Assembly: GCA_963765765.1 (NCBI GenBank)
Contig: CAVXYC010000030.1
Span: forward strand, 1 to 64,000
DNA from: an uncultured Chloroflexia bacterium
Lineage (GTDB): Bacteria; Chloroflexota; UBA6077; JACCZL01
Length of the DNA stretch: 64,000 nucleotides
Reading direction: 5' to 3'
This document shows, in pieces, positions 8,193-29,877 of the stretch. The translations under genes and the position numbers were made by a program. A model generated the notes under the pieces. The model searched no databases. It was not told the DNA's origin and saw nothing but the letters and a program-made list of their open reading frames with translations. Position 1 is the first letter of the stretch. Each line of letters begins with the position of its first letter.

Positions 8193-9587
8193 CTACCGCA
8201 TGATTCCAACGTGCTGTGACACGCGCACTTCCATATCCGTGAGCTGCAGCACTTCATCTACCGTATAGCCCGGCGCGATTGCTTCTACAGTAAACAGGTC
8301 GTCCGTGCGTCGAAGAAGGGCCAGGTCTGTCACCACGATGTCCACGCACCGAAGTCCGGTGAGCGGGTAGTCGCAGTGCCGTACCAGCTTGGCGCGGTCC
8401 TTACTATCGCGATGCTCCATGAGCACAATAAGCGCTTTGGCGCCAGCCACCAGATCCATGGCGCCGCCGATTCCGCCGCCGACCATTTCGGGCGTGCTCC
8501 AGTTGGCCAGATTTCCTTCCTGGTCTACCTGGTAGGCACCGAGAATGACCGCGTCCAGGAGCCCCCCGCGGGCGATCTCGAACGAGGTCACGCTATCGAA
8601 GAACGACGCGCCGGTCTGGAGCGATACGAACTCGCTGCCCGCGTTGTACACGTCCGGGTCGATGTCATCGCCGTCCACGATGGAGCCGTAGCCGAGAATG
8701 CCGTTCTCCGCGTGTAACAGCACGTCGCGGCCGCTGAGATGGTTGGATACCAGCGTGGGTAACCCCATACCCAGGTTCACTACCGAGCCGTCGGCGAGCA
8801 GGTTCGCCGCGCAGCGCGCCATCTTCGAGCGAGTGAGCCCGGGCTTGCCGAGGTAGGTCCGGGCGGTCTCCTCGGTGCGCCGCGCCGGCCGTCCCGCCCA
8901 CAACTCCTCCACACTCACCGTGCGAGTGGCTTGCACGACCCGGGAGACGAACACCCCGGGCAGATCAATCGCCTCAGGCGGAATGTCACCGACCTCCACG
9001 ATCTCGTCCACCTCGGCAACGGCCACACGCGCCGCCTTGGCGAAGCTAGGGTTGAAGTTCTGGCTGCCGCCGCGAAACTGGAGATTGCCCGCCCGGTCGC
9101 CACGCCATGCTCGGACCAGCGCATAGTCCACGGTGATGGCCTGCTCCAGGACGTACTTACGACCATTGAACTCGCGGACCTCTTTCCCCGCGGCAACGTC
9201 GGTTCCGACGGCCACAGGCGAGTAGAAGGCCGGGATGCCGGCGCCTCCGGCGCGGCAGCGCTCCACGAGCATGCCCTGCGGCACCATCTCCAGCTCGATC
9301 TCACCCGCCGCGATTTGCTCCTCAGCCGCTGAGCGGAGACCGGGTCGAGCGGAGAACGCCACCATCAGCTTGCGCACCTGGTGCCGCTCCACGAGCTGCT
9401 GGCGCACATCGTTCTTGCCGCCCAGCGAGTTGCACACCAGGCTGAGGTCGCGGGTGCCCCGGTCCCGGAGTGCCTCGAGCAAGCTAGTAGGGAACCGATG
9501 CCCCAACCCGAACCCGGCCACCGTCACCGTGGCCCCGTCCGGCATGTCCGCGATCGCTTCTTGTGGGGAGCCGACCACCTTGTTCAT
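8193..9587 (-). CDS. 3-oxoacid CoA-transferase, fused A+B subunits
   Basis: PQGMLVER, GGAGIPAF, NLGMGLP, HAENG (catalytic Glu), GIGGAMDL. Confidence 0.9.
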   Translation of the reverse strand: MNKVVGSPQEAIADMPDGATVTVAGFGLGHRFPTSLLEALRDRGTRDLSLVCNSLGGKNDVRQQLVERHQVRKLMVAFSARPGLRSAAEEQIAAGEIELEMVPQGMLVERCRAGGAGIPAFYSPVAVGTDVAAGKEVREFNGRKYVLEQAITVDYALVRAWRGDRAGNLQFRGGSQNFNPSFAKAARVAVAEVDEIVEVGDIPPEAIDLPGVFVSRVVQATRTVSVEELWAGRPARRTEETARTYLGKPGLTRSKMARCAANLLADGSVVNLGMGLPTLVSNHLSGRDVLLHAENGILGYGSIVDGDDIDPDVYNAGSEFVSLQTGASFFDSVTSFEIARGGLLDAVILGAYQVDQEGNLANWSTPEMVGGGIGGAMDLVAGAKALIVLMEHRDSKDRAKLVRHCDYPLTGLRCVDIVVTDLALLRRTDDLFTVEAIAPGYTVDEVLQLTDMEVRVSQHVGIMR

Positions 9588-9764
9588 CGCCCACCTCCGG
9601 GAGTGAGCAGTGTACACCCTGAGGACGCTCTGGAGGCCTGCGTTTATCTTGATAGTAGTTGCGCTCCGCCGTGCCAGTCAGGGTCACCTGGAGGAGGCGA
9701 GAATGATCGACGAGATCGCGCGGAACCCGCACTCGGAGTTCGTCTGGTAAGTCTCGGACCAGTA

Positions 9765-10162
9765 CTATCGCGGCCGGCGGCGCGGCCGATATCTCTGCGT
9801 CGACCGACGCACGCCAACGACTGAGCATGCTCGGCGTTCAGATACCCCGTATTGGTTTTGAAGGAAGCCCACCGCCTGGCGGCGCGCGGTGGGCTTCAGA
9901 AGTTTTTTTGGAGCAGCTCCCGGAGCATGGCATTGTCTTGCGACTGAGCCGCCAGCATCCGTTGTAGTCGTGCGTTCTCGCTCTGCAGGTCCTGTAGTCG
10001 CTGCGCCTCGCCAGCTTCCAGGCCCGCGTACCTCTGCTTCCACCGGTAAAGGGTGGGCTCACTAATGTCGTACTTACGACAGAGCTTGGCAGCAGGTACG
10101 CCATCGTCATGCTGCCTGAGGATGTCCATGATCTGGTCCACGCTGAATCTACTCAATCGCAT
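9765..10162 (-). mobile_element. IS3-family (IS407-like) orfA (9896..10162) plus -1 frameshift into a truncated orfB stub (stop 9765); no DDE domain; copy 1
   Basis: HTH RFSVDQI...LCRKYDISEPTLYRWK, leucine zipper ENARLQRML, A7C slippery site plus 12-bp hairpin, stub GVSERRACSVVGVRRSTQRYR. Confidence 0.9.
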
Positions 10163-10355
10163 TGTCGGCCTCCCGAAATGACCGTGAACAACACTCTCAC
10201 AATTATTGGACCAATCAAGTCCTTGAATCTCCCATGGTTATTAGACACCATGTGTTCAGAGAATATATTTGTGACCAACCTCTATGCTGCGGCGAATTTT
10301 CTTGTGCGCTCTGCATCATTGAGTGGCTCAGATCTGCTGGTAACATGCCTATGTC
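10163..10355. promoter_or_regulatory. Conserved non-coding region upstream of IS3 stub, copy 1
   Basis: Blocks ATTGGACCAAT (10205-10215), ATTAGACACCATGTGTT (10240-10256), ATTTGTGACCAACCTCTATG (10267-10286) identical to copy 2, with diverged linkers. Confidence 0.65.
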
Positions 10356-10585
10356 GATGTTGGAAACACAGATCGTTGATTGCTAATTAGCAGTTCAATA
10401 CGCAAATTGTGCGTGCTATATAGGTATTGTTTGATTTTTCCAGAATGAGTTTGAAGTAGCAGTAACGTAATAGTTATCAAAATACATTTGAAGCTGAATT
10501 CTTTATATGAATAGTTACTTCGATTGGATTGGAGTATCTGAAGAATTTGACCGATATGCATGCATCTCGTTAATGCGAAGCTACT

Positions 10586-10670
10586 CCGGGATGCTGGTTC
10601 GCGTCGGGGTGTGCATTGGCCCAGGAGCATGCTGGGAGTCACTATCAGCCTCAGCTCGCTGACCGCAATG
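10586..10670 (+). pseudogene. Degenerate remnant of OppD/DppD ATPase C-terminus
   Basis: Reads PGCWFASGCALAQEH; aligns to GCAFAPRCALAQEQC at ~16108-16155. Confidence 0.65.
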
Positions 10671-10809
10671 CACCTCCCCCGCTCCTCGCCAGCGAGTCGC
10701 AAAGCAACCACCTGTCCTCCACGGATGAGCTAGCGGTACTCGAATGGGAGGTGGTACCGCTTGTCGCGCCATTGCCACCAAATACGGGTAAGTCGAACAA
10801 GGAGAACCG

Positions 10810-12387
10810 ATGTACGCAGTACCAAGTGTTGAAGATGTCCTGGAAACGGCAAAGTCCTTGGGGATCCACCTGGGGGCCGACGAAGCCGTCCTATACCGCA
10901 AATATCTCATCGAGCAGCTCGACCAATTCGACGCCTTCGTTCAGTCGCGCATCGAAGGTGAGGAGACGCCGCCGAGGTATCCCGGAGCGCGCGAGCCTGG
11001 ATATAGGCCCAGCGCCCAGGAAGACCCCCTGAATGCCTGGATGTGGAAGTGCATGATCCCGGGCGCAGACTCGGGTCTGCTGGCGGGTAAATCAGTCAGC
11101 TTCAAAGACCACACCGCTGTCGCCAGCATCCCGATGAGTTTTGGCACCTTCGCGCTTGACGGGTTCATACCGGACTTTGACGCCACCATAGTCCGTCGCG
11201 TGCTCGAATCCGGCGGCACGATTATCGGCAAGAACGTGATGAACGGCCTTGCTGGCGGATTCGGCTCGGGCGGTGGAATCGGCGATTACGGTCGGCCGCT
11301 CAACCCGCACAACACTGCGCATCTGACCGGCGGCTCCTCTTCCGGTTCCGGCGCCGCCGTGGCTAATGGCGAGGTGGATATCTCCTACGGTGGTGACCAG
11401 GGTGGCTCTATCCGAAGCCCCGCCGCGTGGTGCGGCATCCTTGGTCTCAAGCCGACTTTCGGTTTGATCTCGCACTTTGGTATCGGGTTCGGGTCAGATC
11501 AGAGCATCGACTACACTGGTCCAATGGCCCGAACGGCCGAGGATCTGGCAGCGGCCCTCCAGGCAACAGCCGGATATGATGCGCTCGATCCGCGCTCAAC
11601 GCGCAACGTGCCGTTAACCATGGACGTGCTGGATGGTCTGCAGGGCGGCGTGGATGGACTGCGCATCGGGATCATCAAGGAAGGTACGGATCCCGCTTCT
11701 GCGGACGTCAAGGAGCAGATGATGGCTGCGCTTGACGTGCTGACCGGCAATGGGGCCACCGTCACGGAGGTCTCGGTCCCAAGCTTCTATGAGACGCGGA
11801 CGGCGCAGAACGCGCTCGCCGAGGGCCCACTCTCGCTGTTCAAGACCGGCTTTTTCGGGGCGTTCACACGCACGTACTATCCGCCGGCGTTGATCGCCGC
11901 GATCAATGAGATGTGGGCTTCTCATGCGGATACCCTGGCGCCGCGCACCAAGTTGTCGTTGATAGCGGCGGAGATCGCGCGCAGGAATTACAACGGCCGC
12001 GTGTACGCGAAGGGGCAGAACGCGCGCGCCGCGTTCATCAAGATGTTCGACGCGGCGTTAGAGGATGTGGACGTGCTGGTGTTGCCGACGCGCCTCACGA
12101 CCGCACCTAAATACGATCGACCGACGACGTTCATGGAATCCGTCGAGGACAACCTAGCTTACAACGGTCCAAGTACGCTCCAGAACACCCAGCAGTTCGA
12201 TTACACGGGCCACCCAGCGCTGGCCATGCCAGTGGGCAAGTCCGCCGCAGGCATGCCGGTGAGCATGCAGCTTGTGGGTAAGTTCTTCGATGACCCGTTG
12301 CTGCTACGGGTGGCGTACGCCTTCGAGCACTCGGTTGATTGGAACGCCGTCATTGGCGTCGGATCCACTGAGCTCGTCACCGCTTAG
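10810..12387 (+). CDS. Amidase (amidase-signature family), copy 1
   Basis: SFKDH (Lys), GGSSSGS, GDQGGSIRSPAAWCG, GLKPT. Confidence 0.92.
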   Translation: MYAVPSVEDVLETAKSLGIHLGADEAVLYRKYLIEQLDQFDAFVQSRIEGEETPPRYPGAREPGYRPSAQEDPLNAWMWKCMIPGADSGLLAGKSVSFKDHTAVASIPMSFGTFALDGFIPDFDATIVRRVLESGGTIIGKNVMNGLAGGFGSGGGIGDYGRPLNPHNTAHLTGGSSSGSGAAVANGEVDISYGGDQGGSIRSPAAWCGILGLKPTFGLISHFGIGFGSDQSIDYTGPMARTAEDLAAALQATAGYDALDPRSTRNVPLTMDVLDGLQGGVDGLRIGIIKEGTDPASADVKEQMMAALDVLTGNGATVTEVSVPSFYETRTAQNALAEGPLSLFKTGFFGAFTRTYYPPALIAAINEMWASHADTLAPRTKLSLIAAEIARRNYNGRVYAKGQNARAAFIKMFDAALEDVDVLVLPTRLTTAPKYDRPTTFMESVEDNLAYNGPSTLQNTQQFDYTGHPALAMPVGKSAAGMPVSMQLVGKFFDDPLLLRVAYAFEHSVDWNAVIGVGSTELVTA

Positions 12388-12407
12388 CTCGCGAAAGGGA
12401 CCCCACT

Positions 12408-14111
12408 GTGGCCGTGAATAGCCGATCTCTTCTTCGCACCAGCGCCGCGATTACCCTCGTGGTGCTGGGCGCAAGCCTCGCGGCGGCATGCCGGCCGGCC
12501 GCTAACCCCAGCGCATCCAGCAGCTCCGGTTCCGCAAGGACCGGGGCTGCGCCAAACGAGGCAGCCGCGACCTTCAACACTCGCACCATTGCCGGTAACG
12601 GCAACGGCGGAATTCTCCGCATCGGTATGACTGCCGGCAACGTCCCGATCCCTGACACGCCCACCAATGAAGGCGGTGAAGGTCGGCGCTTCGTCGGCTC
12701 GCAGATCTACGAGGGGCTCACTCGTCTCAACACGGAGCAGGATGCCACGTGGACCCAGCCCGTTCCTGGCATGGCTGAGTCCTGGACGGTGTCCGACGAC
12801 AAGCTCACCTGGACCTTCAAGCTCCGCCAGGGACAGAAGTTCCACGATGGCACGCCTTTCAATGCCGATGCAGTCAAATTCGGGCTCGATCGCGTGATCG
12901 ATAAGGGCGCACCACAGTACAACGCGGCCCTCGCCTCGGCCGCGGCGCAAAACACGGTCGGCATCGCAAGCGTGGCGGTGATCGATGACTCCACCGTTTC
13001 TATCACAACCAGGGCGCCGTACTCCTTTCTGCTCTGGGACCTGACAGTTTTGCTGCTGCCCAGTCCAACCGCCGTTCAGCAGTGGGGCAAGGATTACGTC
13101 CAGCACGCCTCCGGCACTGGCCCCTTCAAAATGACCAAATACGTGGACGGTCAGGTGATGGAGTTGGAGCCGAACCCGGACTACTGGCAGGGCAAGCCGA
13201 AGCTGGACAAGCTGGTGCTGCTCCCAATGCCTGAGCCCGCCGCACGTCTGGCCGGGATTCAGGCGGGCGATATTGACTGGGCGGAGATCCCGCCCCCGAA
13301 CGCCGTGCCTCAGCTCAAGGACATGGGCTTCCAGATCATCACTGGCCCATACCCCCACATCATGACGTACAAGCTCAACATCGACCGGCCACCGTTCAAC
13401 GACGTACGCGTTCGGCAAGCCGTGAACTACGCCGTGAACCGCGATTCTCAGGTGGCCGTCATCGATGGATTCGGCTTTCCAGCCGGCCAATACATTCACA
13501 AGGGCCATCCGTACTACGACGACTCCTGGGAAGGCTTCACCTACAACCCTGCCAAGGCGAAGGAGCTCCTGGCCGCCGCCGGCTATGCGGACGGCTTCAA
13601 GGCCCGCATGGCGTATCCAACAAGCGGCTCGGGGAACATGTGGCCCGGCCCAATGAACGAGCGGCTCAAGGCCGACTTAAAGGCGTTCAACATCGATGTG
13701 GAGCTGGTACCACTGGAGTGGAACACCATCACGACGGCCAACCGAGCCGGGTTCAAAAACCCTGACTGGTCCGGCTACGACATGATCCACATCTCGCAGA
13801 GCCTGTCAACGCCGGCCATGGTGCGGAGCTTCACGTCCTTCGCCGTCCAGCCGCAGGGCTGCTGCAATCCATCCGGCTGGTCAACTCCGGAAGCGGACGC
13901 GATGTGGGTGGAAGCGGAGCGCACGTTCGACCTCGACAAGCAGAACGAGCTCCTGCGCCGCATCCAATCGGCCGCCATGCAGGATGGTTACGCGCTCATC
14001 ACCGTGCACGACAAGAACCTTCGGGTGATGAACAACAACGTTCGCAACTTCATCCAGCCGCAGTCGTGGACGGTTGATCTCTATGGCGTTTATATGGACA
14101 AGAGCACCTGA
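12408..14111 (+). CDS. Family-5 (Opp/Dpp) ABC substrate-binding lipoprotein
   Basis: Lipobox LAAAC, WTFKLRQGQKFHDGTPFNADAV, GTGPF, DVRVRQAVNYAVNR. Confidence 0.9.
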   Translation: MAVNSRSLLRTSAAITLVVLGASLAAACRPAANPSASSSSGSARTGAAPNEAAATFNTRTIAGNGNGGILRIGMTAGNVPIPDTPTNEGGEGRRFVGSQIYEGLTRLNTEQDATWTQPVPGMAESWTVSDDKLTWTFKLRQGQKFHDGTPFNADAVKFGLDRVIDKGAPQYNAALASAAAQNTVGIASVAVIDDSTVSITTRAPYSFLLWDLTVLLLPSPTAVQQWGKDYVQHASGTGPFKMTKYVDGQVMELEPNPDYWQGKPKLDKLVLLPMPEPAARLAGIQAGDIDWAEIPPPNAVPQLKDMGFQIITGPYPHIMTYKLNIDRPPFNDVRVRQAVNYAVNRDSQVAVIDGFGFPAGQYIHKGHPYYDDSWEGFTYNPAKAKELLAAAGYADGFKARMAYPTSGSGNMWPGPMNERLKADLKAFNIDVELVPLEWNTITTANRAGFKNPDWSGYDMIHISQSLSTPAMVRSFTSFAVQPQGCCNPSGWSTPEADAMWVEAERTFDLDKQNELLRRIQSAAMQDGYALITVHDKNLRVMNNNVRNFIQPQSWTVDLYGVYMDKST

Positions 14112-14223
14112 CCATCTTCACGTGTCAATGAAGAGGCGATTGTCCCCGGTGGGGCGGGCAGAAACGCCCGTCCCGCTAAGGTATCGTCTCGGCAATTCAC
14201 CGTCTCGGACGGCGGATATGTTC

Positions 14224-14693
14224 TCACGCTCTGCTAGACGTTACCCCTTCTGGCCGGGCGGTCTCGTTCCGATACCCGCCATTAGCGTAACCGAGCTTCG
14301 TGGGCGCGCGCATCTGTCGATATCTCTGCGTTGACTGACGGACGCCGACCACTGAGCACGCTCGCCGTTCCGATGCTCCGTACTGGACCTGAAGAAAGCC
14401 CACCGCGCGGCGATACGCGGCGGGCTTCAGAAGTTTTTTGGAGTCAGATCCCGGAGCATGGCGTTGTCTTGCGACTGGGCTGTCAGCAGTCGCTGCAGTC
14501 GCGCGTTCTCCTCCTGGAGATGCTGGAGCCGCTCAGCCTCGCTCACGTTCAGGCCTGAGTACTTCTGCTTCCACCTATAGAAGGTGGGCTCGCTGATTCC
14601 GTGTCTACGGCAGAGATCGGCAGCAAGAACGCCAGCTTCGTGCTGCCTGAGGATGTCCATGATCTGGTCCACGCTGAATCGACTCACTCGTAT
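14224..14693 (-). mobile_element. IS3-family orfA (stop 14427; ATA at the position of the copy-1 ATG, GTG at 14687) plus -1 frameshift into truncated orfB stub (stop 14224); copy 2
   Basis: About 65/88 aa identical to copy 1 by manual alignment; A6C slippery site plus 13-bp hairpin; stub GASERRACSVVGVRQSTQRYR then unrelated tail. Confidence 0.88.
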
Positions 14694-14890
14694 TGTCGGC
14701 CTCCCGAAACGACCGTGAACAACACACTCTCACAATAATTGGACCAATAGTTTCCTATTGCCACCATCAATATTAGACACCATGTGTTGTTGCCAGAGAC
14801 ATTTGTGACCAACCTCTATGATGCGATCAATTTTATTGTGCGCCCGACATCAATGACCGGCTGGACGTGAGTGCTACGATGCCTATGTTG
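14694..14890. promoter_or_regulatory. Conserved non-coding region upstream of IS3 stub, copy 2
   Basis: ATTGGACCAAT 14738-14748, ATTAGACACCATGTGTT 14772-14788, ATTTGTGACCAACCTCTATG 14801-14820. Confidence 0.65.
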
Positions 14891-15218
14891 AATTAGTCAA
14901 CCGACTCATGAATCGACACTTGCACAGAAGTAAGTTGCGCATACAGAGAGTTCATGGGGAATACTAATCATCGATTATCAACCGATGCTCTTTCCAATAA
15001 CTATTATGAATCGATGTTGAAGCATTCAAAATATTAATAGTGAATTATAGTCACTCAGCACTCGAAAGAATGAACGAGCTAATGGCGATGTATTTAATCA
15101 AGAAATCAAATTCTGTTTTGCAACAACGCGGAACCAATCGATGAAGAAAGGTCGTTTAAATGAAGCACCTTCCCGCGCCGTCCATTCTTGAATTCACGCG
15201 ACTCAGGGAGTACGCATC

Positions 15219-16225
15219 ATGAGCCTGGTTATGGAACGCCCCGCGGCGGTCAAGCCGACCACATCGGAGTCGCCGGTGCTGGACGTCCGCCGATTGACGA
15301 CTGAGTTCAATACCTACGCCGGACCTTTGCGAGCGGTGAATGAGATGTCTTTCACGCTCCAGCGCGGTCGGGTTCTGGCGATCATCGGGGAGTCTGGCTC
15401 TGGTAAGAGCGCGCTCCTGCGCACGATTCTCGGGATTCAGCCCCACAATGCCCGCATCGACGGCGAGATCTTCCTCAACGGCGTGGACCTTCTAAGGCTC
15501 CCGGCGAGCGAGCGCGAGGACATCCGCGGCGGCGTGGTGTCGATGGTCTTCCAGGACCCAATGACGGCATTGGACCCGATCTACACCGTTGAGCAGCAGC
15601 TTGTGGAGACCATTCGTCGCCACTCGCCGATGAACGCAGGGGAAGCGAAGGCGCGAGCGCTCGAACTCCTCGAGCTGGTGCAGATCCCATCGCCAGAACG
15701 ACGACTCAAGGCATTCCCATTCGAGCTGAGCGGTGGCATGCGTCAGCGCATCGTTATTGCGATGGCGTTGGCTTCTACGCCCAGCCTGCTGCTCGCGGAT
15801 GAGCCGACCACGGCGCTGGACGTCACGGTCCAGGGGCGAATATTGCGGCTTCTCGCTGACCTTCAGCGGCAGCTCGGCATGAGTGTTGTCTTTGTCACGC
15901 ACGACCTCGCCGTGGCTGCCCAGATCGCGGATGACTTGATCGTGATGTACGCCGGTCGGGTCGTTGAATCGGGACTCGCATCCGAGATCGTTCGCTCGCC
16001 ATCGCATCCGTACACTCGGGGGCTATTGGCCGCGAATGTCCAGCCCGGGCAAAAGGAGCGGCCAGCAGTTATTCCGGGCTCACCGCCCAATATGGTGCGC
16101 CTTCCCCGGGTTGTGCTTTCGCTCCGCGGTGCGCGTTGGCCCAAGAGCAGTGCTGGGAATCCATGCCGGATCTGAGCTCGCTGTCAGCAACGCATTTTGC
16201 GCGCTGCGTCGTAACTGAGTCGTAA
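15219..16225 (+). CDS. Oligopeptide/dipeptide ABC ATPase (OppD/DppD-like), frameshift near 16107
   Basis: GESGSGKS, LSGGMRQR, DEPTTALD, HPYT; shifted frame gives GCAFAPRC...ARCVVTES* ending 16225. Confidence 0.88.
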
Positions 16226-16338
16226 GCGCCCAAGCTCGAAGCGCCACCTGAAGAGATAGCGATACACGAATGGGAGGCGGTTTCGTTCGATCCAACGTCG
16301 ACTGTTAAGCACGGATAACTTGAAAGAGGAAAAACCAG

Positions 16339-17913
16339 ATGTACGCAGTACCGAGTGTTGAAGAAGTAGTGGAAGTCGCCAGGTCACTGGGGATTCACCT
16401 GGGAGCTGACGAGGCCGCGCTGTATCAAAAATATCTCCTGGCGCAGCTCGATGAGTTCGACGCCTTTGTGCAGTCGCGGATCGCGGAAGACGCGCCGCCC
16501 ATGTACTCGCCGGCTCGCGCGCCGGGCTATAGGCCAAGCGCGGATGAAGATCCGCTGAACGCCTGGATGTGGAAGTGCATGATCCCCGGCGCGGACTCAG
16601 GTCTTCTATCCGGCAAGACTGTGAGCTTCAAAGACCATGTCGCCGTTGGCGGCATCCCCATGAGCTGGGGGACCTTCGCGCTGGATGGCTTCATTCCTGA
16701 CTTCGATGCCACCATCGTCAATCGGGTGCTCGAGGCGGGCGGCACGATCATCGGCAAGAACGTGATGAATGGTCTGGCAGGTGGTTTTGGGACAGGCGGT
16801 GCGATCGGCGACTACGGTCGTCCGCTGAACCCTCATAACACAGAGCACGTCACCGGCGGCTCATCCGCTGGCTCAGGCGCCGCCGTGGCGGCCGGTGAAG
16901 TGGACATCTCCTTTGGTGGTGACCAGGGCGGCTCCATCCGAATTCCCGCCGCCTTCTGCGGCATTCTGGGCCTCAAGCCCACCTTCGGACTCATCTCCCA
17001 TTTCGGCATCGGCTTCGGCTCGGACCAGAGCATCGATTACACGGGACCGATGGCCCGAACCGCGGAAGAGACAGCGGCGGCTCTCCAGGCAACAGCCGGA
17101 TATGACGCGTACGATCCACGCTCCACGCGCGACGTTCCGGAGACCATGGACGTGCTCAGCGGCCTGAGGGATGGTGTGGATGGCCTGCGCATCGGCATCG
17201 TCAAGGAGGGGACCGATAGCGCGACCGACGAAGTCAAAGACATGTTCATGGCAGCCATTGATGTGCTGACGAAAAATGGCGCCACGGTGACCGAGCTCTC
17301 GATTCCTGAGCACATCGGGATGCGCGCAGCACAGAACGCGCTGGGCGAGGGGCCACTCTCGCTGTTCAAGACCGGCTTCTTCGGCGCATTCACTCGGACG
17401 TACTACCCGTCCTCGTTGATTGCCGCGATCAACCAAATGTGGGCGTCACACGCGGACACGCTTGCGCCGCGCACGAAGATGTCGCTGATCGCCGCGGAGA
17501 TGGCGCGGAAGAACTACAACGGGCGCGTCTACGCCAAGGGCCAGAACGCGCGCAATGCCTTCATCAAGGCGTACGACGCGGCGTTGCAGGATGTGGACGT
17601 GCTGGTGATGCCCACCTGCTTGATGACCGCGCCGAAGAACCATCGTCCGGAGACGTTCCTTGAGGCTGTCGAGGACAACCTCTCGGCGATGAGTCGCAGC
17701 GCGTCAACAAACACGCAGCCATTCAATTACACGGGTCATCCAGCGTTGTCTATGCCAGTGGGCAAGTCCGCCGCGGGACTGCCCGGCAGCATGCAGATCA
17801 TCGGTCGCTTCTTCGACGATCCGCTGGTCATGCGCGTCGCCTACGCCTTCGAGCATTCCGTTGACTGGGACGCCGTTGTGGGCGTCAAGTCCACTGAGCT
17901 AGTCAGCGTCTAG
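16339..17913 (+). CDS. Amidase (amidase-signature family), copy 2
   Basis: SFKDH, GGSSAGS, GDQGGSIRIPAAFCG; close paralog of 10810..12387. Confidence 0.92.
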   Translation: MYAVPSVEEVVEVARSLGIHLGADEAALYQKYLLAQLDEFDAFVQSRIAEDAPPMYSPARAPGYRPSADEDPLNAWMWKCMIPGADSGLLSGKTVSFKDHVAVGGIPMSWGTFALDGFIPDFDATIVNRVLEAGGTIIGKNVMNGLAGGFGTGGAIGDYGRPLNPHNTEHVTGGSSAGSGAAVAAGEVDISFGGDQGGSIRIPAAFCGILGLKPTFGLISHFGIGFGSDQSIDYTGPMARTAEETAAALQATAGYDAYDPRSTRDVPETMDVLSGLRDGVDGLRIGIVKEGTDSATDEVKDMFMAAIDVLTKNGATVTELSIPEHIGMRAAQNALGEGPLSLFKTGFFGAFTRTYYPSSLIAAINQMWASHADTLAPRTKMSLIAAEMARKNYNGRVYAKGQNARNAFIKAYDAALQDVDVLVMPTCLMTAPKNHRPETFLEAVEDNLSAMSRSASTNTQPFNYTGHPALSMPVGKSAAGLPGSMQIIGRFFDDPLVMRVAYAFEHSVDWDAVVGVKSTELVSV

Positions 17914-17933
17914 CTCTCGGAAGGACGGTAGAG

Positions 17934-18203
17934 GTGACAACGAATCGTCGATCTTTTCTTCGCACCGCGGCCCTGATGGGCCTCGGTGCCCTGAGCGTGG
18001 ACCTGCTGGCCGCTTGTCGGCCAGCGGCCCCTAGCTCGTCGACTGGCGCGGCCCCCAAAGTCGCGGCACCGGCCGGCGGCGCGCAGGCACCGGTGTTCAA
18101 CACTTATTCGCTCAAGGGCACGGGCAGCGGTGGAGTCTTGCGTATCGGCATGAGCGCCACCAACATCCCAATCCCTAACGTCTACATGGAGAAGAGCGCG
18201 TGA
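17934..18203 (+). pseudogene. Family-5 SBP with large in-frame internal deletion (89-aa mini-lipoprotein)
   Basis: NRRSFL Tat-like signal, LAAC lipobox, LRIGMSATNIPIPN joined directly to VYMEKSA* (paralog ends VYMDKST*). Confidence 0.8.
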
Positions 18204-19147
18204 GTATCTCTGCACTACTCCGCCGTGTGGGAATGGGCTTTCTCACAGCGTTCGGCGTGTCCATCGTTATCTTCGTGCTGCTCTCGGTACTTCCTGGAGA
18301 CCCACTCGCGGGGCTCCTTCCTGAGAGCGCGCAGCCGAAAGATCGGGAAGAGCTTGCCCAGCAGCTTGGTTTGGACAAGCCCCTACCTGTGCGCTACGTG
18401 AACTGGATCAGTGATCTGGCCCGTGGGGACTTCGGCTACTCGCCGTTCAGACGCCGCAACGTTTCCGATCTGATCGCTGCCGCATGGCAGAACACCGCCG
18501 TCCTGGCGATCGCGTCCGCGGTCGTTGGATTGGGGATGGGAATCATTGCGGGCATCACCGCCGCGGTGTTCCACGGACGTTGGCCTGACCGGGTGGTCTC
18601 GACACTGGCACTCACGGGTCTTAGCGTCCCCTCGTACTTCATAGCGATTCTGCTGATCATCGTGTTCTCCGCGCAGCTCAAGGTTCTGCCTGGGTCGGGG
18701 ATGCACGGCTCGGAAGGCGGTGCGCTCGATTTCCTGAGTCACCTGATCATGCCGCTCATTGCGGGCTCGCTGGTGACGCTGGGCGTAACGGCCCGGGTTA
18801 CTCGTGCGAGTGTGACGGAGACCTTTGGCGCTGACTTCGTCGAATTGCTGCGAGCCAAGGGGTTGCGCGCGTATCAGGTGCTGCCCCACGTCATCAAGAA
18901 TGCCGCGTCGCCAGTGCTGACGACGTCTGGCCTACAAGTGGGAAATTTGTTGGGCGGCGCCGTGCTCATTGAAACGATTTTCAGCTGGCCAGGCATTGGC
19001 TCGCTCGTCTACACGGCAATCAGCGCCCGAGACCTGCGTGTGGTGCAGGGCGCCACGCTTGTCATCGCGATGACGTTTGTGGTGCTCAATGTACTGGTTG
19101 ACCTCCTGCAGATGATGATCGATCCGCGCCAGCGCGGGACGACTTAA
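18200..19147 (+). CDS. Opp/Dpp ABC permease (B-type)
   Basis: PGDP, GLDKPLPVRY, RAKGL, ETIFSWPGIG, IDPR. Confidence 0.9.
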   Translation: MSISALLRRVGMGFLTAFGVSIVIFVLLSVLPGDPLAGLLPESAQPKDREELAQQLGLDKPLPVRYVNWISDLARGDFGYSPFRRRNVSDLIAAAWQNTAVLAIASAVVGLGMGIIAGITAAVFHGRWPDRVVSTLALTGLSVPSYFIAILLIIVFSAQLKVLPGSGMHGSEGGALDFLSHLIMPLIAGSLVTLGVTARVTRASVTETFGADFVELLRAKGLRAYQVLPHVIKNAASPVLTTSGLQVGNLLGGAVLIETIFSWPGIGSLVYTAISARDLRVVQGATLVIAMTFVVLNVLVDLLQMMIDPRQRGTT

Positions 19148-19166
19148 GGAGAGGAGGTAGCGTCAA

Positions 19167-20111
19167 ATGGCAACAACATTTCCAACTCGGGAATTGCCGG
19201 CAACACTGCCGACTGGTACTCCCTCAGCGATTGCGCAAGCGTGGGCTGAGTCGGATGTTCCGGTCGCACCGCGCTCCTACTGGGCGGATGTGCGAAGCCG
19301 ACTCCGGCGCAACCGAATCGCGGTTGCCTCCATGTCAGTCTTAGCCGTGCTGGTGTTGACTTGTGTTGCGGCCGGTTTGATCTCACCATATGACCCCAAC
19401 GTGGGCGAGGTGTCCGATCGGCTGCTGCCGATCGGCGATCCGGACCATATCTTAGGCACGGACGACCAGGGCCGCGACATGCTTTCGCGACTTCTCTGGG
19501 GTGGGCAGCTTTCCCTGCTGGCGGGTTTCGCTCCGGTGCTGATCGCCACTGCCATCGGCACGGCCATTGGAGCGTTCGCCGGATATGTCGGCGGCGCGGT
19601 TCGGTCAGGCCTCATGCGCAGCCTGGACATCTTTTACGGACTCCCGGCAATTCTGCTGGCGATTGCCATCGGCGCGTCACTTGGACCGGGCCTGCTCAAT
19701 GTGATCATTTCGGTCAGCATCGTGTACATCGCTCCAATAGCTCGTGTTGCCGAAGCGGCCACGCGCAGGGCGATGGTGGATGAGTACATCGAGGCAGCTC
19801 GATTGAGCGGTGCTGGAGCTCCCGCAATCATTTTCTCGGAGCTACTGCCGAACATCTTCAATCCGATCTTCGTGTACTCGGCGGGCCTGGTGGGCCTGAG
19901 CATGATCATCGCCTCGAGCCTCAGCTTCCTTGGCCTCGGCTCGCGTCCTCCCACTCCGGAGTGGGGCTACATGCTCAACTCGCTGCGACCGATGATCTAC
20001 ATGAACCCGTGGGTGGTGGCGCTGCCGGGATTGATGATTTTCATTACTTCGGTCGCATTTAACACTCTGAGCGACGCAATTCGCGACGCGATGGATATCA
20101 AGAGCTCCTGA
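19167..20111 (+). CDS. Opp/Dpp ABC permease (C-type)
   Basis: HILGTDDQGRDMLSRL, EYIEAARLSGA, LSFLGLG, PEWG. Confidence 0.9.
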   Translation: MATTFPTRELPATLPTGTPSAIAQAWAESDVPVAPRSYWADVRSRLRRNRIAVASMSVLAVLVLTCVAAGLISPYDPNVGEVSDRLLPIGDPDHILGTDDQGRDMLSRLLWGGQLSLLAGFAPVLIATAIGTAIGAFAGYVGGAVRSGLMRSLDIFYGLPAILLAIAIGASLGPGLLNVIISVSIVYIAPIARVAEAATRRAMVDEYIEAARLSGAGAPAIIFSELLPNIFNPIFVYSAGLVGLSMIIASSLSFLGLGSRPPTPEWGYMLNSLRPMIYMNPWVVALPGLMIFITSVAFNTLSDAIRDAMDIKSS

Positions 20112-21217
20112 TGACGATTGCCACAGATAACGTAACGACCAATGCGTCGATCGACGCTCCCAGCGCCACCGCGCTCCTCGAAGTAAGTGAGCTCAGCAAG
20201 GCATTCCCGGTAAGTACCGGGTTTCGCAAAACGAGCTACCTATCCGCCGTGGACAAGGTCTCGTTCGAGGTTGAAGCTGGCACCACGATGGGCATCGTGG
20301 GCGAGTCCGGGTGCGGTAAGTCCACGCTGGCTCGGCTCATTCTAGGGCTGGTGGACGCCGACTCAGGCGAGATCAAAATAGAGCAACAGGCGATTGACTG
20401 GCGGAAGAGCGCGGGCCGCAAGCAGCTTCGACGAAACATGCAAATGGTGTTTCAAAACCCGTACTCGTCGCTGAATCCGCGCAGCTCGATTGGCGAGATC
20501 ATCGCTTTCCCTATGCGCGCGCAGGGCATTGACAAGGCTGACATCGCCGAGCGCACGGTAAGTTTGCTGGAGCAGGTCGGTTTACATGGGAATCACGCGT
20601 CGTATTACCCACATCAACTCAGTGGTGGTCAGCGGCAGCGGGTCAATATCGCGCGAGCCCTGGCGCTGCATCCCAAGCTCGTGATCTGCGATGAAGCCGT
20701 CGCCGCGCTCGATAAATCGGTGCAGGCGCAGGTGCTGAGTCTCCTGCAGGACCTGCAACAGTCGCATGGGTTAACGTATCTCTTCATCAGTCATGACCTG
20801 AACGTCGTTGAGTACATGAGCGACCGCGTCTCGGTGATGTACCTGGGTCACATCGTCGAGTCGGCTGCCGCGGATCAGCTCTACCGCCGTCCGCTTCACC
20901 CCTACACCCAGGCGTTGCTCGCCGCCAGCCCGCGGTTGGACCTCGACCACAGGCTGAACGACGAGGATCTTATTGAGGGAGAGCTGCCCAGCGCTCTGAA
21001 TCCTCCGAGCGGCTGCCGATTCCGTACGCGCTGTCCACATGCAATGGATGTATGCGCTGAGTCTCGCCCGCCGCTACTCCAGCTCGAATCCGGGCACCGC
21101 GTTGCCTGTCATCTCTACTCGGAGGATGGCGATGCCGCGGGCGCAGCACGAGTCCCTGGGAGCGCGGGCGTCCCGCCCGTCCCGGACCTAGAGGTCGTTC
21201 AGGTTCGCAATTCATGA
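20111..21217 (+). CDS. Opp/Dpp ABC ATPase (F-type)
   Basis: GESGCGKST, LSGGQRQR, HPYT, PPSGCRFRTRCP, VACH. Confidence 0.9.
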   Translation: MTIATDNVTTNASIDAPSATALLEVSELSKAFPVSTGFRKTSYLSAVDKVSFEVEAGTTMGIVGESGCGKSTLARLILGLVDADSGEIKIEQQAIDWRKSAGRKQLRRNMQMVFQNPYSSLNPRSSIGEIIAFPMRAQGIDKADIAERTVSLLEQVGLHGNHASYYPHQLSGGQRQRVNIARALALHPKLVICDEAVAALDKSVQAQVLSLLQDLQQSHGLTYLFISHDLNVVEYMSDRVSVMYLGHIVESAAADQLYRRPLHPYTQALLAASPRLDLDHRLNDEDLIEGELPSALNPPSGCRFRTRCPHAMDVCAESRPPLLQLESGHRVACHLYSEDGDAAGAARVPGSAGVPPVPDLEVVQVRNS

Positions 21218-21505: not shown

Positions 21506-22918
21506 ATGACTGACATTCCCCTCACAATTAAAGACGCTGCCGCCGCATTGCGCGACGGTCTACTCACCAGCGAAACGCTCACCACAGAGATGCTCGAGCG
21601 GATCGAGCATCTGAACCCCACCCTTGGTGCGTTTATCGCCGTCTCCGGCGAGGCTGCTCTCGAGGCCGCGAAGGAAGCTGATCGAGACCTGGATCGAGGC
21701 ATCGACAAAGGTCCGCTGCAGGGCATTCCTCTGGGCGTCAAAGACATCATCGCCACGCGTGATGCACCGACAACGGCCAATAGCCACATTCTCGATCGGA
21801 GCTGGGGGGCGCACTGGGACGCCCCTGTCGTGGAGCGACTTCGGAACGCCGGCGCGGTGATCATGGGCAAAACTGTTACCAGTGAATTCGCGTGCGGGCT
21901 GCCTGATCCCGACAATGGCTTTCCGATGCCCAAGAATCCCTGGAACATCGAGCATTCGGCAGCCGGCTCCAGCGCAGGCACCGGAATTGGCGTCGCCGCG
22001 GGGATGATCCTAGGGGGGCTAGGCACAGACACGGGCGGATCCGTTAGAGCACCTGCCTCCGCCAATGGTCACACGGGACTCAAGGTCACCTTCGGGCGGG
22101 TTCCAAAGTACGGTTGCGTGGCTCTCGGATATAGCCTTGACAGCATTGGTCCTATGGCTCGCACGGCCTGGGATTGCGCGGCCCTGCTCTCAGTAATGGC
22201 CGGCTACGATCCACGCGATCCAACGGTCGCGGATGAGCCGGTACCAGACTACACCGCGACGCTGACTGGAGACATCGAGGGCTTGCGTATTGGCGTGCCG
22301 AGTACCTATTTCTTCGATGCCCCCACGCTCGACCCGGAGATCAAGGCAGCGGTACTCGAGGGTATCGAAGTCCTCAAGTGCGCTGGCGCTATCGTGAGTG
22401 AGATCACGATTCCGCACTGCGACATAGCCAAGAGCGCCAACAACCTGATTTGGGCCAGTGAAGGTTTGGCATACCACCACGACGATTTGCGAGATCGCTG
22501 GAAGCTGTACGGCCAGTACACACGTACGGCCATCGCTCGAGGAGCGCTGTTCAATGGCCCGGATTACGTCCAGGCACAGCGATTCCGGTCCTACTTCAAG
22601 AAGTCCGTCATGGCGGCCATGGCCGATGTGGACGTGCTGATAACCCCGACCTCGCCAACTCCGGCAGACAAAATCTCCGAAATGAGTCACGAGACGCGAC
22701 TGCTCATGCCGGTCAGTTTCACGGGTATGTGGAACCTCATCGGCATCCCGGCCGTGGCCTTGCCGTGTGGTTTCAGCTCAACTGGCCTGCCGCTCTCCAT
22801 GCAGATCGTGGGCAAGCCCTTTGAGGAGGCAACCATCTTGAAAGCAGGCGACGTGTATCAGCAGGCAGTTGACTGGCAGCTGAAGGTTCCCCTGATGGCA
22901 CAGGCGGTGGCATCGTGA
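21506..22918 (+). CDS. Amidase (GatA/AtzE-like)
   Basis: GPLQGIPLGVKDII, AGSSAG, GTDTGGSVRAPAS, GLKVT. Confidence 0.9.
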   Translation: MTDIPLTIKDAAAALRDGLLTSETLTTEMLERIEHLNPTLGAFIAVSGEAALEAAKEADRDLDRGIDKGPLQGIPLGVKDIIATRDAPTTANSHILDRSWGAHWDAPVVERLRNAGAVIMGKTVTSEFACGLPDPDNGFPMPKNPWNIEHSAAGSSAGTGIGVAAGMILGGLGTDTGGSVRAPASANGHTGLKVTFGRVPKYGCVALGYSLDSIGPMARTAWDCAALLSVMAGYDPRDPTVADEPVPDYTATLTGDIEGLRIGVPSTYFFDAPTLDPEIKAAVLEGIEVLKCAGAIVSEITIPHCDIAKSANNLIWASEGLAYHHDDLRDRWKLYGQYTRTAIARGALFNGPDYVQAQRFRSYFKKSVMAAMADVDVLITPTSPTPADKISEMSHETRLLMPVSFTGMWNLIGIPAVALPCGFSSTGLPLSMQIVGKPFEEATILKAGDVYQQAVDWQLKVPLMAQAVAS

Positions 22919-24308
22919 CAGAGCTGCCAGTCACGATCTCGGATGCTGCCGCTGCCCTGCGAAGTGGCAGGCTGACTAGCGTCGAGCTCACCCAGGAGAC
23001 GTTCAAACGAGCCGATCGACTCGATGATGCGCTTGGCGTCTATTTGCGACGAATGGATGAGTCAGCGTTGGTAGAGGCGGCCCAAGCAGACAAAGAGCTG
23101 GCGGCCGGCGTCGATAAAGGGCCACTTCAAGGCATCCCCCTGGGAATCAAGGACATCATCGCCACGGACAATGCTCCGACCACCGCGCAGAGCCTGGTGC
23201 TGGATCCTGCCTGGGGCAACGAGGCGATGCGCCCGTGATTGCTCGGCTGCGAGCAGCCGGCGCTGTCATTACCGGCAAGACGACGACGATGGAGTTTGCC
23301 ACCGGACTTCCTGATCCAGACAAGCCGTTTCCAGTACCACGCAACCCGTGGAACGAGGGGCATTGGCCGGGCGGCTCTAGCTCGGGCACTGGCTCAGGAG
23401 TCGCGGCGGGTATGTTCCTCGGCGGTCTTGGAACCGATACTGGCGGCAGCATTCGTGGACCAGCCGCGTACTGCGCCATTAGCGGACTCAAGCAGACGTT
23501 TGGGCTCGTGCCCAAGTCAGGCTGTGTCCCGCTCGGCTTCAGTCTCGATCACATTGGACCAATGGCGCGGAGCGCGCGGGATTGCGCGATGATTCTGCAG
23601 GTCATCGCCGGATACGATCCGAGCGATCCAACCTGTCAGAACGTACCCATTCCGGATTACCTGGCAGCGCTCACTGGGACCTCGCGGGTGTGAAAATCGC
23701 CATCGAACGCGAGCATCACACACGAGTGGCAGGTGTACTCCCGGAGTCCGTGGAGGCATTCGAGCAGGCGGTTTCGGTACTGGTTGCAGCCCGGTGCCAG
23801 CACAATCGAGGTGACCATTCCTCATTACGACGAAATCGCGTTCGCCGGTCGCGTGCAGAGTCGATGCGAGGGCGCGTCCTTCCATATGGTCGACCTGCGT
23901 GAGAAGTGGGGTGACTACGGCATTCACACTCGCGATGCGGTTGGCAGCTCAGTAATGTACAGCGCCTCAGACGTGGTTCAGGCGCAGCGCGTGCGACAGT
24001 ATGGACAGAAAACGATCCGCGAGCTGATGCGGCCGTTTGACGTCATGGTGATGCTCAGCCGTGGAACTGGTGCGCCAGAGATCGATGGGCTGACCTTCGA
24101 GTCCTACGCGAAGGTGCCATCGTTCACGTCGATCTGGAACGTGATGGGCCTGCCCGCGTTGTGTATCCCGATGGGGTTCACCAACGATGGTCTGCCCCTC
24201 TCCCTACAGATCGTGGGCAAGCCATTTGATGAGGCAACCGTGCTCCGTGTGGGTGATGTGTTCCAACAGCTCACCGATTGGCACTTGAAGGTAGCGCCCG
24301 TCGTCTGA
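22915..24308 (+). CDS. Amidase (GatA/AtzE-like), split by ~3 frameshifts
   Basis: Fragments 22915..23238, 23235..23693 and 23733..24308 carry consecutive amidase motifs (GIKDII; GGSSSG, GTDTGGSIR; GLPLSLQIVG). Confidence 0.82.
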
Positions 24309-28298: not shown

Positions 28299-29663
28299 CT
28301 AGCGACGCAGCGCCGGTGAGATGGTTGGTTCCATTTCCGTGAGTCCCACCACTTCTTCGGGGGTGAACCCGGGCGCCACGTCCTCGAGCACGAACTGCCC
28401 ATCACGCCGGATGAGGACCGCCAGGTCCGTCACCACGATATCCACGCACCGGCTTCCGGTGAGCGGATAGGTGCAGCGCCTCACCAGCTTGGCATGATCG
28501 CGACTATCCCGATGCTCCAGTAGGATCATCACCGTGGCACCACCGGCCACCATGTCCATGGCCCCGCCAATACCGCCGCCAACCATGCCCGGCGTGCTCC
28601 AGTTCGCCACGCTGCCCTCGGCATCCACCTGGTACGCGCCGAGCGCTACCACCTGAACTCGACCCGACCGCACCATCTCGAACGCGGTGACGCTATCGAA
28701 GAACGAGATGCCCGGTCGAGGCTCCACGAACTGCCCGCCGGCATTGAACGTCTCTGACTCGGTCGCGTCATCGCTCATCGCCTGGCCGTAACCCAGAATG
28801 CCGTTTTCACCGTGCAGGATGATGTCACGACCGCCAATGAAGTTCGAGACGAGCGTGGGAATGCCCAACCCGAGATTGACGTACGCATGCTCCGGGAGGA
28901 GTGCAGCCGCGCGCTCGGCCATCTGAGAACGAGTCCAGGCCGTCTTGCCGAGATACTGTCGAGGTACGTCGGCAGGGCGTCGCTCGGGCTTGGAGAACGG
29001 CGGACGGCGAGTTTTCTCCACGACGCGATGGACGAAGATACCGGGCAAGCCCGATGCGCTCTGGTGGGATGTCGCCAGGCTCGACGATCTCGTCGACCTC
29101 CACGATCGTGACCGTGGCGGCCTTGGCGAAGCTCGGTCCAAAGTGGTGGTTGCTGCCCTTGAACTCCACGTTTCCGAGCGGTCCGCGCGATAGCCGGTGA
29201 TGAACGCGTAGTCTACGCGGATGGCCGTCTCGAGCAGGTATGGGCGGCCATCGAAGTACCGCACTTCCTTGCCGTCCGCTACCGGAGTATCGATGCCGGT
29301 GGGCGTGTAGATCGCGGCGAGTCCGGCGCCGCCCGCGCGCAGACGCTCCACCAGCGTGCCCTGAGGAATCATCTCGAAGGTCATCGCGCCAGCCGCGATA
29401 CGGTCCTCGGCCGGTGAGCGGGTACCCGCGCGGGCTGTGAACGAGACCATCACGTGCGCAACCTGATCGTTGGTGACCAGATCGTTGCTGCCTGACCCGA
29501 GCGTGTTGCCAACGAGGGTGAGACCGCGTGTGCCGCGTTCGCGCACGGCCTGAAGTAGGCTAGCCGGAATTCCCGCCCACGGTCCAAAGCCGGAGATCGC
29601 GATGCGAGCTCCGTCGGCAAGATCAGCGATTGCCTCTGCGGGCGACGCGACAACCTTGTCCAT
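28299..29663 (-). CDS. 3-oxoacid CoA-transferase, fused A+B (compensating frameshifts ~29055-29175)
   Basis: PQGTLVER, HGENG, GIGGAMD; alternate frame supplies FKGSNHHFGPSFAKAA...VEVDEIV; paralog of 8193..9587. Confidence 0.87.
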   Translation of the reverse strand: MDKVVASPAEAIADLADGARIAISGFGPWAGIPASLLQAVRERGTRGLTLVGNTLGSGSNDLVTNDQVAHVMVSFTARAGTRSPAEDRIAAGAMTFEMIPQGTLVERLRAGGAGLAAIYTPTGIDTPVADGKEVRYFDGRPYLLETAIRVDYAFITGYRADRSETWSSRAATTTLDRASPRPPRSRSWRSTRSSSLATSHQSASGLPGIFVHRVVEKTRRPPFSKPERRPADVPRQYLGKTAWTRSQMAERAAALLPEHAYVNLGLGIPTLVSNFIGGRDIILHGENGILGYGQAMSDDATESETFNAGGQFVEPRPGISFFDSVTAFEMVRSGRVQVVALGAYQVDAEGSVANWSTPGMVGGGIGGAMDMVAGGATVMILLEHRDSRDHAKLVRRCTYPLTGSRCVDIVVTDLAVLIRRDGQFVLEDVAPGFTPEEVVGLTEMEPTISPALRR

Positions 29664-29734
29664 GTCCACCTCTGCACTGCGAAACGTTCGCAGCAATGTC
29701 ACCAAGTGTAGTGTGTACGATGCCGGCCAAACGC

Positions 29735-29752: not shown

Positions 29753-29877
29753 CGAAGTTGTTTTCCCTGCAATACTCTGTCCCCAGCGAAGGCATCGAAC
29801 GAGCACAGCATGCCCGGCGGGGCATGCACCGGCCCGATCGAGCGGCATCGGTCGAACAACGAAGCGGGAGCTCTGCC

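Follow-up and report, generated by a model that had tools for sequence, protein, structure and literature searches.

Domesticated transposases are a textbook source of regulators in eukaryotes, and the remnants of insertion sequences (IS) are usually dismissed as junk. To our knowledge, the documented bacterial cases of domestication are few, for example the REP-associated Y1 transposases and the TnpB-derived TldR. In mammals, the host gene PEG10, derived from a gag-pol retroelement, has kept a -1 frameshift and makes two products. Here we describe two stubs of an IS3-type transposase, copy A and copy B, found in the first 64 kb (the window, that is, the whole stretch analysed) of contig C30 of G000, the draft genome of an uncultured Chloroflexia bacterium (6.49 Mb in 33 contigs, 91.8% complete and 6.9% contaminated). 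The stubs are probably an exapted DNA-binding remnant of an IS3 element, reused by the host with its frameshift retained. The evidence at the DNA level comes from this one pair of stubs, both in one genome.

The closest described elements are IS of the IS3 family, in particular those of about 1.2 kb from Alphaproteobacteria and metagenomes (plasmid label 'IS3 family transposase'). The stubs have in common with them an OrfA of 88 amino acids (aa) with an HTH_Tnp_1 helix-turn-helix (HTH) domain and a heptad helix, an A-run slippery site two to three codons before the OrfA stop with a hairpin, the N-terminal HTH of OrfB, and the inner motif CTGGTCCA of the left inverted repeat (IRL). Unlike these IS, the stubs have no HTH_21, no rve/DDE core and no right inverted repeat (IRR); the tip of their IRL is decayed, and there are two copies, both in a tandem duplication. 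A comparable protein has been made in the laboratory. OrfAB[149] of IS911, truncated so that the catalytic domain is missing, binds inverted repeats, bends DNA and pairs two ends, according to the portion of the report used here (PMC1636345). The predicted frameshift product of the stubs, OrfAB', would resemble it in combining an HTH, a zipper and the N-terminal OrfB segment with the catalytic domain absent. However, OrfAB[149] was engineered, whereas the truncation of the stubs is natural and has been retained in evolution.

Another parallel, and the nearest bacterial precedent among the matches listed, is TldR, which the part of its report used here (bioRxiv 10.1101/2023.11.30.569447) describes as a nuclease-dead, TnpB-derived protein domesticated as a transcription factor. 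By that partial account TldR is, like the stubs, a bacterial transposon protein without catalysis. It differs in being RNA-guided, in deriving from the TnpB of IS200/IS605 and in forming a recurrent family with experimental support, whereas the stubs represent a protein-only HTH module of a DDE transposase. With PEG10 the stubs share the retention of a mobile element's frameshift by a gene of that element, although PEG10 has a eukaryotic gag-pol origin. No bacterial counterpart of such PEG10-type frameshift domestication was present among the literature matches listed, and no description of a domesticated IS3 OrfA among the best-ranked matches listed.

Truncation in itself is common in this group. 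Among 99 loci of relatives with at least 1.1 kb of downstream DNA, 22 are without a complete OrfB (160 loci had an OrfA match, 61 of which were set aside for short downstream DNA). In other genomes, the pairs L092/L093, L100/L142 and L115/L121 share the left end and OrfA only (324-615 nt, 97-99% identical) or an internally deleted form; these pairs are 91-99% identical and are therefore recent copies. OrfA-only derivatives seem to have been copied repeatedly in this IS group. The stubs have diverged further, to 80% identity, and the substitutions between them follow a coding-type pattern in two frames. Their unusual feature is the combination of an old divergence, a coding pattern in two overlapping frames and a retained recoding signal.

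The window contains two minus-strand IS3-type OrfA genes, each divergent to amidase and ATP-binding cassette (ABC) transporter genes. The coding features of the two stubs are the following:

9896-10162, minus strand: OrfA of copy A, 88 aa, ATG start with GGGAGG six bases upstream; HTH_Tnp_1 at 62.9 bits.
14427-14693, minus strand: OrfA of copy B, with ATA as codon 1 (14691-14693), GTG as codon 3 and the same Shine-Dalgarno sequence; HTH_Tnp_1 at 67.6 bits.
9765-9911, minus strand: OrfB' stub of copy A in the -1 frame, from slippery site to stop, homologous to OrfB residues 1-45.
14224-14442, minus strand: OrfB' stub of copy B in the -1 frame, from slippery site to stop, homologous to copy A and to true OrfB up to STQRYR (14318).
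9902-9908, minus strand: slippery heptamer A AAA AAC of copy A, phased for a -1 shift and lying three codons short of the OrfA stop.
14433-14439, minus strand: slippery heptamer A AAA AAC of copy B, in phase and likewise three codons short of the OrfA stop.
9864-9897, minus strand: stem-loop of copy A, 4 nt past the heptamer, with 12 perfect pairs and a 10-nt loop (-26.4 kcal/mol, z -3.0).
14388-14431, minus strand: stem-loop of copy B, with an extended stem (-33.1 kcal/mol, z -5.5).

Both HTH_Tnp_1 matches exceed the Pfam cut-off of 24.1 bits. The two OrfA proteins are identical at 65 of 88 aa and contain no internal stop; read from the GTG at codon 3, copy B is an open reading frame (ORF) of 86 aa. 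The AlphaFold (AF2) model of the copy A protein (pLDDT 90.3) has helices at residues 8-19, 24-30, 35-45 and 50-87, that is, a three-helix HTH followed by a single 38-residue heptad helix. In an alignment of 40 sequences, copy A retains 17 of 17 family-invariant residues and copy B 16, with Met1 alone missing. Consensus residues are retained at 29 of 54 positions in A and 30 of 54 in B, and at 28-54 (median 51) in the others, a sample dominated by one IS subgroup. The complex prediction for two OrfA copies (score 0.18, mark 0.42) weighs neither for nor against, and a PDB sequence search with OrfA gave a single weak match (E 0.0011). In metagenome and genome scans, the OrfA relatives with DNA are at most 56% identical in aa sequence; the database proteins P0003-P0007 are 68-76% identical.

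In the -1 frame, the homology between A and B covers about 42 codons of the OrfB N-terminus and ends at STQRYR, after which the tails are unrelated; DNA identity drops there, at 9787/14318, from 0.73-0.87 to 0.37-0.43. Over the first 42-45 residues the stub is 55% identical to genuine IS3 OrfB (E 2e-11), and protein searches with it returned only OrfB-type proteins, 55-60% identical. In full OrfB proteins, HTH_28 (residues 5-41) is followed by HTH_21 (42-99) and the rve core (113-210). A preliminary description of this DNA had reported the two copies with their divergent position to the amidase/ABC genes, their 65/88 identity in OrfA without internal stops, a -1 frame shared no further than STQRYR, the lack of an integrase core and of terminal inverted repeats, and an ATA in copy 2 where copy 1 has ATG. 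All of these observations were confirmed, the absence of core and repeats by Pfam, tblastn and a repeat search.

The hairpins of the two copies differ by one stem position, A-U in A and G-U in B, and pairing is therefore kept. Among related full-length IS, an A-run lies at the same position in five of the six examined, and the closest of them, L009, has the identical heptamer and then a GC hairpin. An in-phase -1 frameshift signal, heptamer plus hairpin, is retained in both stubs, and frameshifting is predicted.

No rve/DDE domain follows either copy: Pfam found none on the -1 products, and tblastn with two true OrfBs matched residues 1-45 only. The whole 6.49-Mb assembly has no rve match, and its only HTH_Tnp_1 matches are the two stubs. 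Apart from one distant match, it contains no other relative of OrfA or OrfB, and no parent IS. No pair of terminal inverted repeats was found around either stub, and an IRR is absent. The copies exist as two tandem duplicates; none is dispersed in the 6.49 Mb. The stubs are immobile: the DDE core and the IRR are missing, the tip of the IRL has decayed, and the assembly holds no parent IS. Two other classes of mobile DNA were considered and rejected. An autonomous IS3 element would match in HTH_Tnp_1, the heptad helix and the shift signal, but HTH_21/DDE, terminal inverted repeats and dispersed copies are missing. A derivative resembling a miniature inverted-repeat transposable element or mini-IS was rejected on the basis that no IRR-like sequence lies next to the truncation in A or B. 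The sequence GGACCAG at 9759-9765 is in direct, not inverted, orientation. Two features expected of an exapted host gene are present: mobility has been lost with the ORF intact (in copy B without ATG), and purifying selection, relaxed relative to active IS, is seen in the one pair.

The purifying selection is seen in both frames. The 376-nt coding part of A and B aligns without gaps and contains 75 differences, whereas the adjoining 195 nt of non-coding homology carry 3 small indels. By the Nei-Gojobori method, the synonymous divergence (dS) of OrfA is 0.65 (0.40-1.11) and the nonsynonymous divergence (dN) 0.153, so that dN/dS (omega) is 0.24 (0.12-0.44; p 2.8e-5 in a binomial test against equal rates). 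The halves of OrfA taken separately give 0.23-0.24 each, and the other two sense frames of the OrfA region 1.35 and 1.52. In the 35 codons of the -1 stub that lie past the OrfA stop, omega is 0.185 (p 0.004), and the 0 and +1 frames of the same region give 2.1 and 1.5. The differences at the three codon positions number 15/9/30 in OrfA and 3/5/13 in the -1 stub. When 75 substitutions were placed at random in 20,000 trials, both frames stayed open in 3.4% of them. Moreover, the replacements between A and B concentrate in the variable columns of the family (Mann-Whitney p 0.002), as judged from 130 unique OrfAs (from 154 matches spanning at least residues 6-85 without a stop) plus P0003-P0005.

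The neutral yardstick is provided by the neighbours: the windows left of 9787 are 37-43% identical, the IRL tip about 63%, and the synonymous sites of the co-duplicated amidases are near saturation (dS 1.14, 0.92-1.44). For OrfA codons 18-88, dS is 0.82 (0.46-1.71), which overlaps the amidase value and fits a common age. Both coding frames have been kept under purifying selection since the duplication while their presumably neutral neighbours decayed to 40-63% identity. The argument of the preliminary description that neutral remnants should decay like their flanks therefore stands. Of the checks it had suggested, dN/dS between the copies (0.24 in OrfA, 0.18 in the -1 stub) is not near 1, and the search of the genome for a full-length parent IS found none in the assembly. 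Its comparison of synteny came out mixed: the stub is absent at the operon of G001, the only other genome of the genus, and the copy B of a close relative, which adjoins the same flank, has lost about 285 nt. The central claim, a domesticated transposase under selection, holds insofar as an immobile remnant shows constraint in two IS3 frames; its weaker side is that this constraint falls below that of active IS and that copy B appears to be decaying.

The history of the stubs is linked to that of the adjoining operon, the relevant parts of which are:

10810-14111, plus strand: cargo of unit A, with amidase A (10810-12387) and an intact family-5 solute-binding protein (SBP_A, 12408-14111).
About 10568-10700: relic, of about 100 nt, of the lost ATPase 3' end in unit A.
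15219-21217, plus strand: cargo of unit B and shared transporter, with an OppD-like ATPase (15219-16175) and amidase B (16339-17913).
Continuing unit B, plus strand: fragment of the solute-binding protein (SBP) gene (17934-18203), permeases (18200-19147 and 19167-20111) and a second ATPase (20111-21217).

In blastn, 9787-10357 matches 14318-14891 (79.3% identity over 581 nt, E 4e-138), and a second block, 10598-12440, matches 16118-17966 (75.5% identity). The order in G000 is stub A, ATPase relic, amidase A, SBP_A, stub B, ATPase, amidase B, SBP fragment and permeases. In G001 it is ATPase, amidase, SBP, permease and permease, in single copy on one 8.6-kb contig. The stubs stand at the head of what is, by this gene order, a tandem duplication of an ATPase-amidase-SBP ancestor. 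Unit A has lost its ATPase and kept amidase A and a complete SBP; unit B has kept its ATPase and amidase B, and its SBP is cut to an 89-codon fragment. The duplicated units have therefore suffered complementary losses. About 2.2 kb present in G001 (L175, G001:C582) are absent between 18179 and 18188 in the SBP gene of unit B.

The 1331 nt upstream of the G001 ATPase contain no match to the stub; the sole OrfA match in that genome (47%) belongs to a full-length IS located on a different contig. No match to the stub DNA was found in 20 relatives. Amidase dS is 1.14 between A and B, 2.30 between A and G001, and 1.65 between B and G001. The A-B distance is smaller than either distance to G001, which places the insertion, the truncation and the duplication after the separation from G001. 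An IS3-family element was inserted upstream of the ATPase-amidase-SBP-permease operon, everything beyond OrfB residue 45 or so (HTH_21, DDE core and right end) was lost, and the rest was then copied in tandem with the head of the operon. Both stubs come from one copy that was already inserted and, most simply, already truncated, because the homology between A and B runs about 115 nt past the inferred IS end in blocks unique in the genome.

Upstream of OrfA, where the stubs were aligned to nine left ends of related IS (these ends lie 78-81 nt upstream of orfA), the features are the following:

10163-10216, minus strand: 5' leader and inner IRL of copy A, with the palindrome ATTGGACCAAT; its windows match copy B at 83-93% identity.
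10217-10239, minus strand: decayed IRL terminus of copy A, the expected TGATCC... tip unrecognisable; identity about 0.63.
10240-10357: non-IS flank of copy A, conserved in blocks against B, with windows of 83-87% in 10263-10307 and 3 small indels.
14694-14891: leader, IRL and flank blocks of copy B; inner IRL to 14748, tip at 14749-14769 with TGAT... on the minus strand.

An inner IRL motif resembling CTGGTCCA, which in related IS lies about 55 nt upstream of orfA, is retained in the stubs. The terminal 20 nt or so of the IRL are barely recognisable in B and gone in A. The stretch 10102-10218, which spans OrfA codons 1-17, the leader and the inner IRL, is 83-100% identical between A and B, with a dS of 0.11 in those codons. 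This near-identity reflects either a site that functions at the nucleotide level or a patch of gene conversion. In the genome, the long blocks of leader, IRL and flank are confined to the two stub loci. The 11-nt palindrome ATTGGACCAAT occurs five times, including twice on other contigs and once at 23553 in an amidase pseudogene, at a place that codes for a GPM motif in amidases A and B. Promoter and terminator scans gave a plus-strand promoter-like site at 10242-10269 (10 of 12 positions), at the junction of IS and flank in copy A, none in B, and nothing on the strand of the stubs. An Rfam scan of 9000-19000 gave one sub-threshold match only, inside the SBP gene.

The retained inner IRL sits in a region of 36-45% guanine plus cytosine (GC) between each stub and the divergent operon. 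Stretches of this composition, 400-700 nt long, precede the operon at 10200-10600 and 14700-15200 and also in G001 (the genome has about 62% GC). Beyond the blocks adjoining the stubs, these AT-rich regions cannot be aligned with one another.

Several further observations concern the neighbouring genes. The OppD-like ATPase gene of unit B changes frame near 16105: after NMVRLP, the conserved Cys-rich C-terminus (PGC..F.PRC...) is read in a different frame, with a stop near 16222, and this out-of-frame C-terminus (window 16040-16225) matches the G001 protein. The change is either a recent frameshift or an assembly error. A fourth amidase at 22915-24308 is broken into three ORF pieces (22915-23238, 23235-23693 and 23733-24308), matching positions 1-72, 84-225 and 342-445 of the Pfam Amidase domain; it is a frameshifted pseudogene just downstream of the intact third amidase (21506-22918). 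A short upstream ORF starting with MGGG, of 15 and 12 codons, precedes each amidase of the duplicated units (10744-10791 and 16270-16308). Its start and the preceding 25 nt or so are the only part conserved between A and B, and the corresponding spacer in G001 is just 43 nt. Next to stub A lies a CoA-transferase gene (8193-9617); its paralogue at 28299-29705 (9031-9487 against 29117-29563, 66.6% nucleotide identity over 464 nt) is followed by another family-5 binding protein at 29758-31608. This paralogy may reflect a second, older segmental duplication.

The best explanation of the stubs, which we hold tentatively and at slightly less than even confidence, is that the truncated and duplicated remnants were kept as a two-product local regulator acting at the retained inner IRL, with copy A as the working copy. 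Each stub would yield OrfA, with its HTH and heptad helix, and the frameshift would add OrfAB', consisting of the HTH, the heptad helix and a second HTH. Both products would bind the inner IRL that has been kept, and this site would act as an operator within the AT-rich stretch that separates the stub from the divergent amidase/peptide-ABC genes. The stub would regulate itself, and would probably modulate or architecturally organise the promoter region of the operon. Copy A, the intact one, would do this work. Among the 33 larger ORFs (a subset of all ORFs) that were scanned from 1 to 33 kb, none showed a Pfam transcription-factor domain. The most economical reading is a local role, either regulatory or architectural. 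A more elaborate version, in which OrfA and DDE-less OrfAB' isoforms act on inner-repeat operators, possibly bridging the remnants 4.5 kb apart, and control the duplicated amidase/peptide-ABC locus, is possible but appears doubtful to us.

A number of observations weigh against a local two-product regulator. In seven active IS of the Afipia/Nitrobacter type, picked for gapless alignment, 20 of 21 OrfA pairs have an omega of 0.00-0.08 at dS 0.31-0.84 (the remaining pair has 0.38 at dS 0.05). With an omega of 0.24, constraint on the stubs is therefore about 3- to 10-fold weaker than in their transposing relatives, and the value could be a blend of constraint early on and neutrality later. In place of the ATG, copy B has ATA, and the distance from its Shine-Dalgarno sequence to the GTG of codon 3 is 12 nt. 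Relative to copy A and P0006, copy B of G000 has four private replacements in 62 codons (M1I, D19E, D20A and D58H). In a close relative, about 285 nt of copy B have been deleted in frame, apparently by an event between two GAGAAC repeats. This deletion is seen in the proteins P0006 and P0007 (73 aa, M start, 56/62 and 55/62 identical to copy B), which pass from OrfA codon 62 or so directly into VRDGELPRR, a sequence encoded in the same frame at 14210 of the window, in the flank that separates SBP_A from stub B. The deletion takes out the last part of the heptad helix, the shift site together with its hairpin, and the second HTH. Given the ATA start, the private replacements and the deletion in the relative, copy B looks dispensable in two lineages, and it appears to be drifting toward loss.

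Further points on the same side concern the locus as a whole. The G001 operon is without a stub, which is therefore young and lineage-specific, not a conserved regulator. The conservation of 10102-10218 could be a gene-conversion patch instead of an operator, the promoter scan found no sigma-70-like minus-strand promoter for the stubs, and nothing but their divergent position connects them with amide catabolism.

Soil-metagenome contigs 95-97% identical to the window, from runs of at least two studies, cover parts of both stubs: X2 covers 9917-10124, and X6 covers 9723-9980, 10120-10227 and 14651-14760. A contig of run X6 has an in-frame 3-nt deletion at 14641, within OrfA of copy B. The sequencing runs listed for the locus number 19, and all are of DNA.

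Among the rival explanations, the one that survives best, although we consider it unlikely, is a slowly dying relic: the stubs were constrained or homogenised after truncation and have no present function, copy B being already a pseudogene and copy A about to follow. The raised omega, the lesions of copy B here and in the relative, and the frequency of truncation in other members of the group are all as expected for such a relic. So is the divergence of the soil contigs, 2.8-4.5% at the stubs against 0.7-3.2% at the amidase pieces, a rough comparison since the runs differ. However, constraint on an immobile, DDE-less copy, even if confined to an early phase, would already be selection at the level of the host. 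Furthermore, copy A is without lesion: it has kept its ATG and Shine-Dalgarno sequence, an intact heptamer and hairpin, and two open frames. A relic also has to contend with the 376 nt free of indels next to non-coding DNA with three, and with the rarity at which both frames stay open by chance.

It is also conceivable, but quite improbable, that the stubs are a transposition inhibitor retained by the host, in which OrfA and OrfAB' block the inverted repeats of incoming IS3 elements or poison their transposase multimers and the operon is irrelevant. The upstream-frame products of IS3-family elements can regulate on their own, according to the part of PMC5009743 used here, and the binding of inverted repeats by the IS911 derivative without a catalytic domain (PMC1636345, likewise used in part) would suit such a role. 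The assembly has no rve transposase at all, and its family relatives G001 and G007 have full-length IS3 elements. This absence is weak evidence, because IS contigs are often missing from draft assemblies built from metagenomes; the present genome, in 33 contigs, is 91.8% complete. An inhibitor would also provide no reason for two diverged copies, or for the conservation in cis of the inner IRL and of the non-IS flank blocks.

Even less probable, in our estimate, is that the low dN/dS was imported, either through conversion of the stubs by different active IS copies or by descent from two IS lineages. The OrfA proteins of A and B and the metagenome proteins P0003-P0005 are about equidistant (identical residues of 88: A-B 65, B-P0003 66, A-P0003 63, A-P0004 62), copy B is like P0003 at residues 44-54 (10 of 11) where A is different, and the IRL tip is more IS-like in B than in A. 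However, residues 44-54 form the linker between HTH and zipper, which is variable throughout the family, and only two of the states shared by B and P0003 are derived. The truncation point is common to A and B within a few bases, and their homology continues for about 115 nt past the IS end and into the amidase. A donor is absent from the assembly, and dS in OrfA codons 18-88 overlaps that of the co-duplicated amidases. Finally, a role of the remnant as DNA only, that is, as promoter, terminator or insulator between the units with its protein frames irrelevant, is highly implausible: it would fit the hairpin with T6-7 that is read on the plus strand 285 nt past the stop of SBP_A, the promoter-like site in A and the nucleotide-level conservation of the leader, but it would leave unexplained the third-position excess and an omega of 0.18-0.24 in exactly two IS3 frames, the promoter-like site was not reported in B, and there was no plus-strand terminator call at the hairpin because the T-run starts 6 nt after the stem.

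If the stubs are indeed a local two-product regulator, a bacterial host would be able to recruit both a programmed frameshift and the half of a DDE transposase that binds DNA. The stubs would then be a bacterial counterpart of the frameshift-retaining retroelement genes and the first DDE-transposase-derived regulator of such kind. It would also follow that annotations as 'partial transposase' can hide regulators. The locus offers a test bed for this possibility, with two diverged paralogues, their own retained putative binding sites and assayable catabolic genes adjacent to them.

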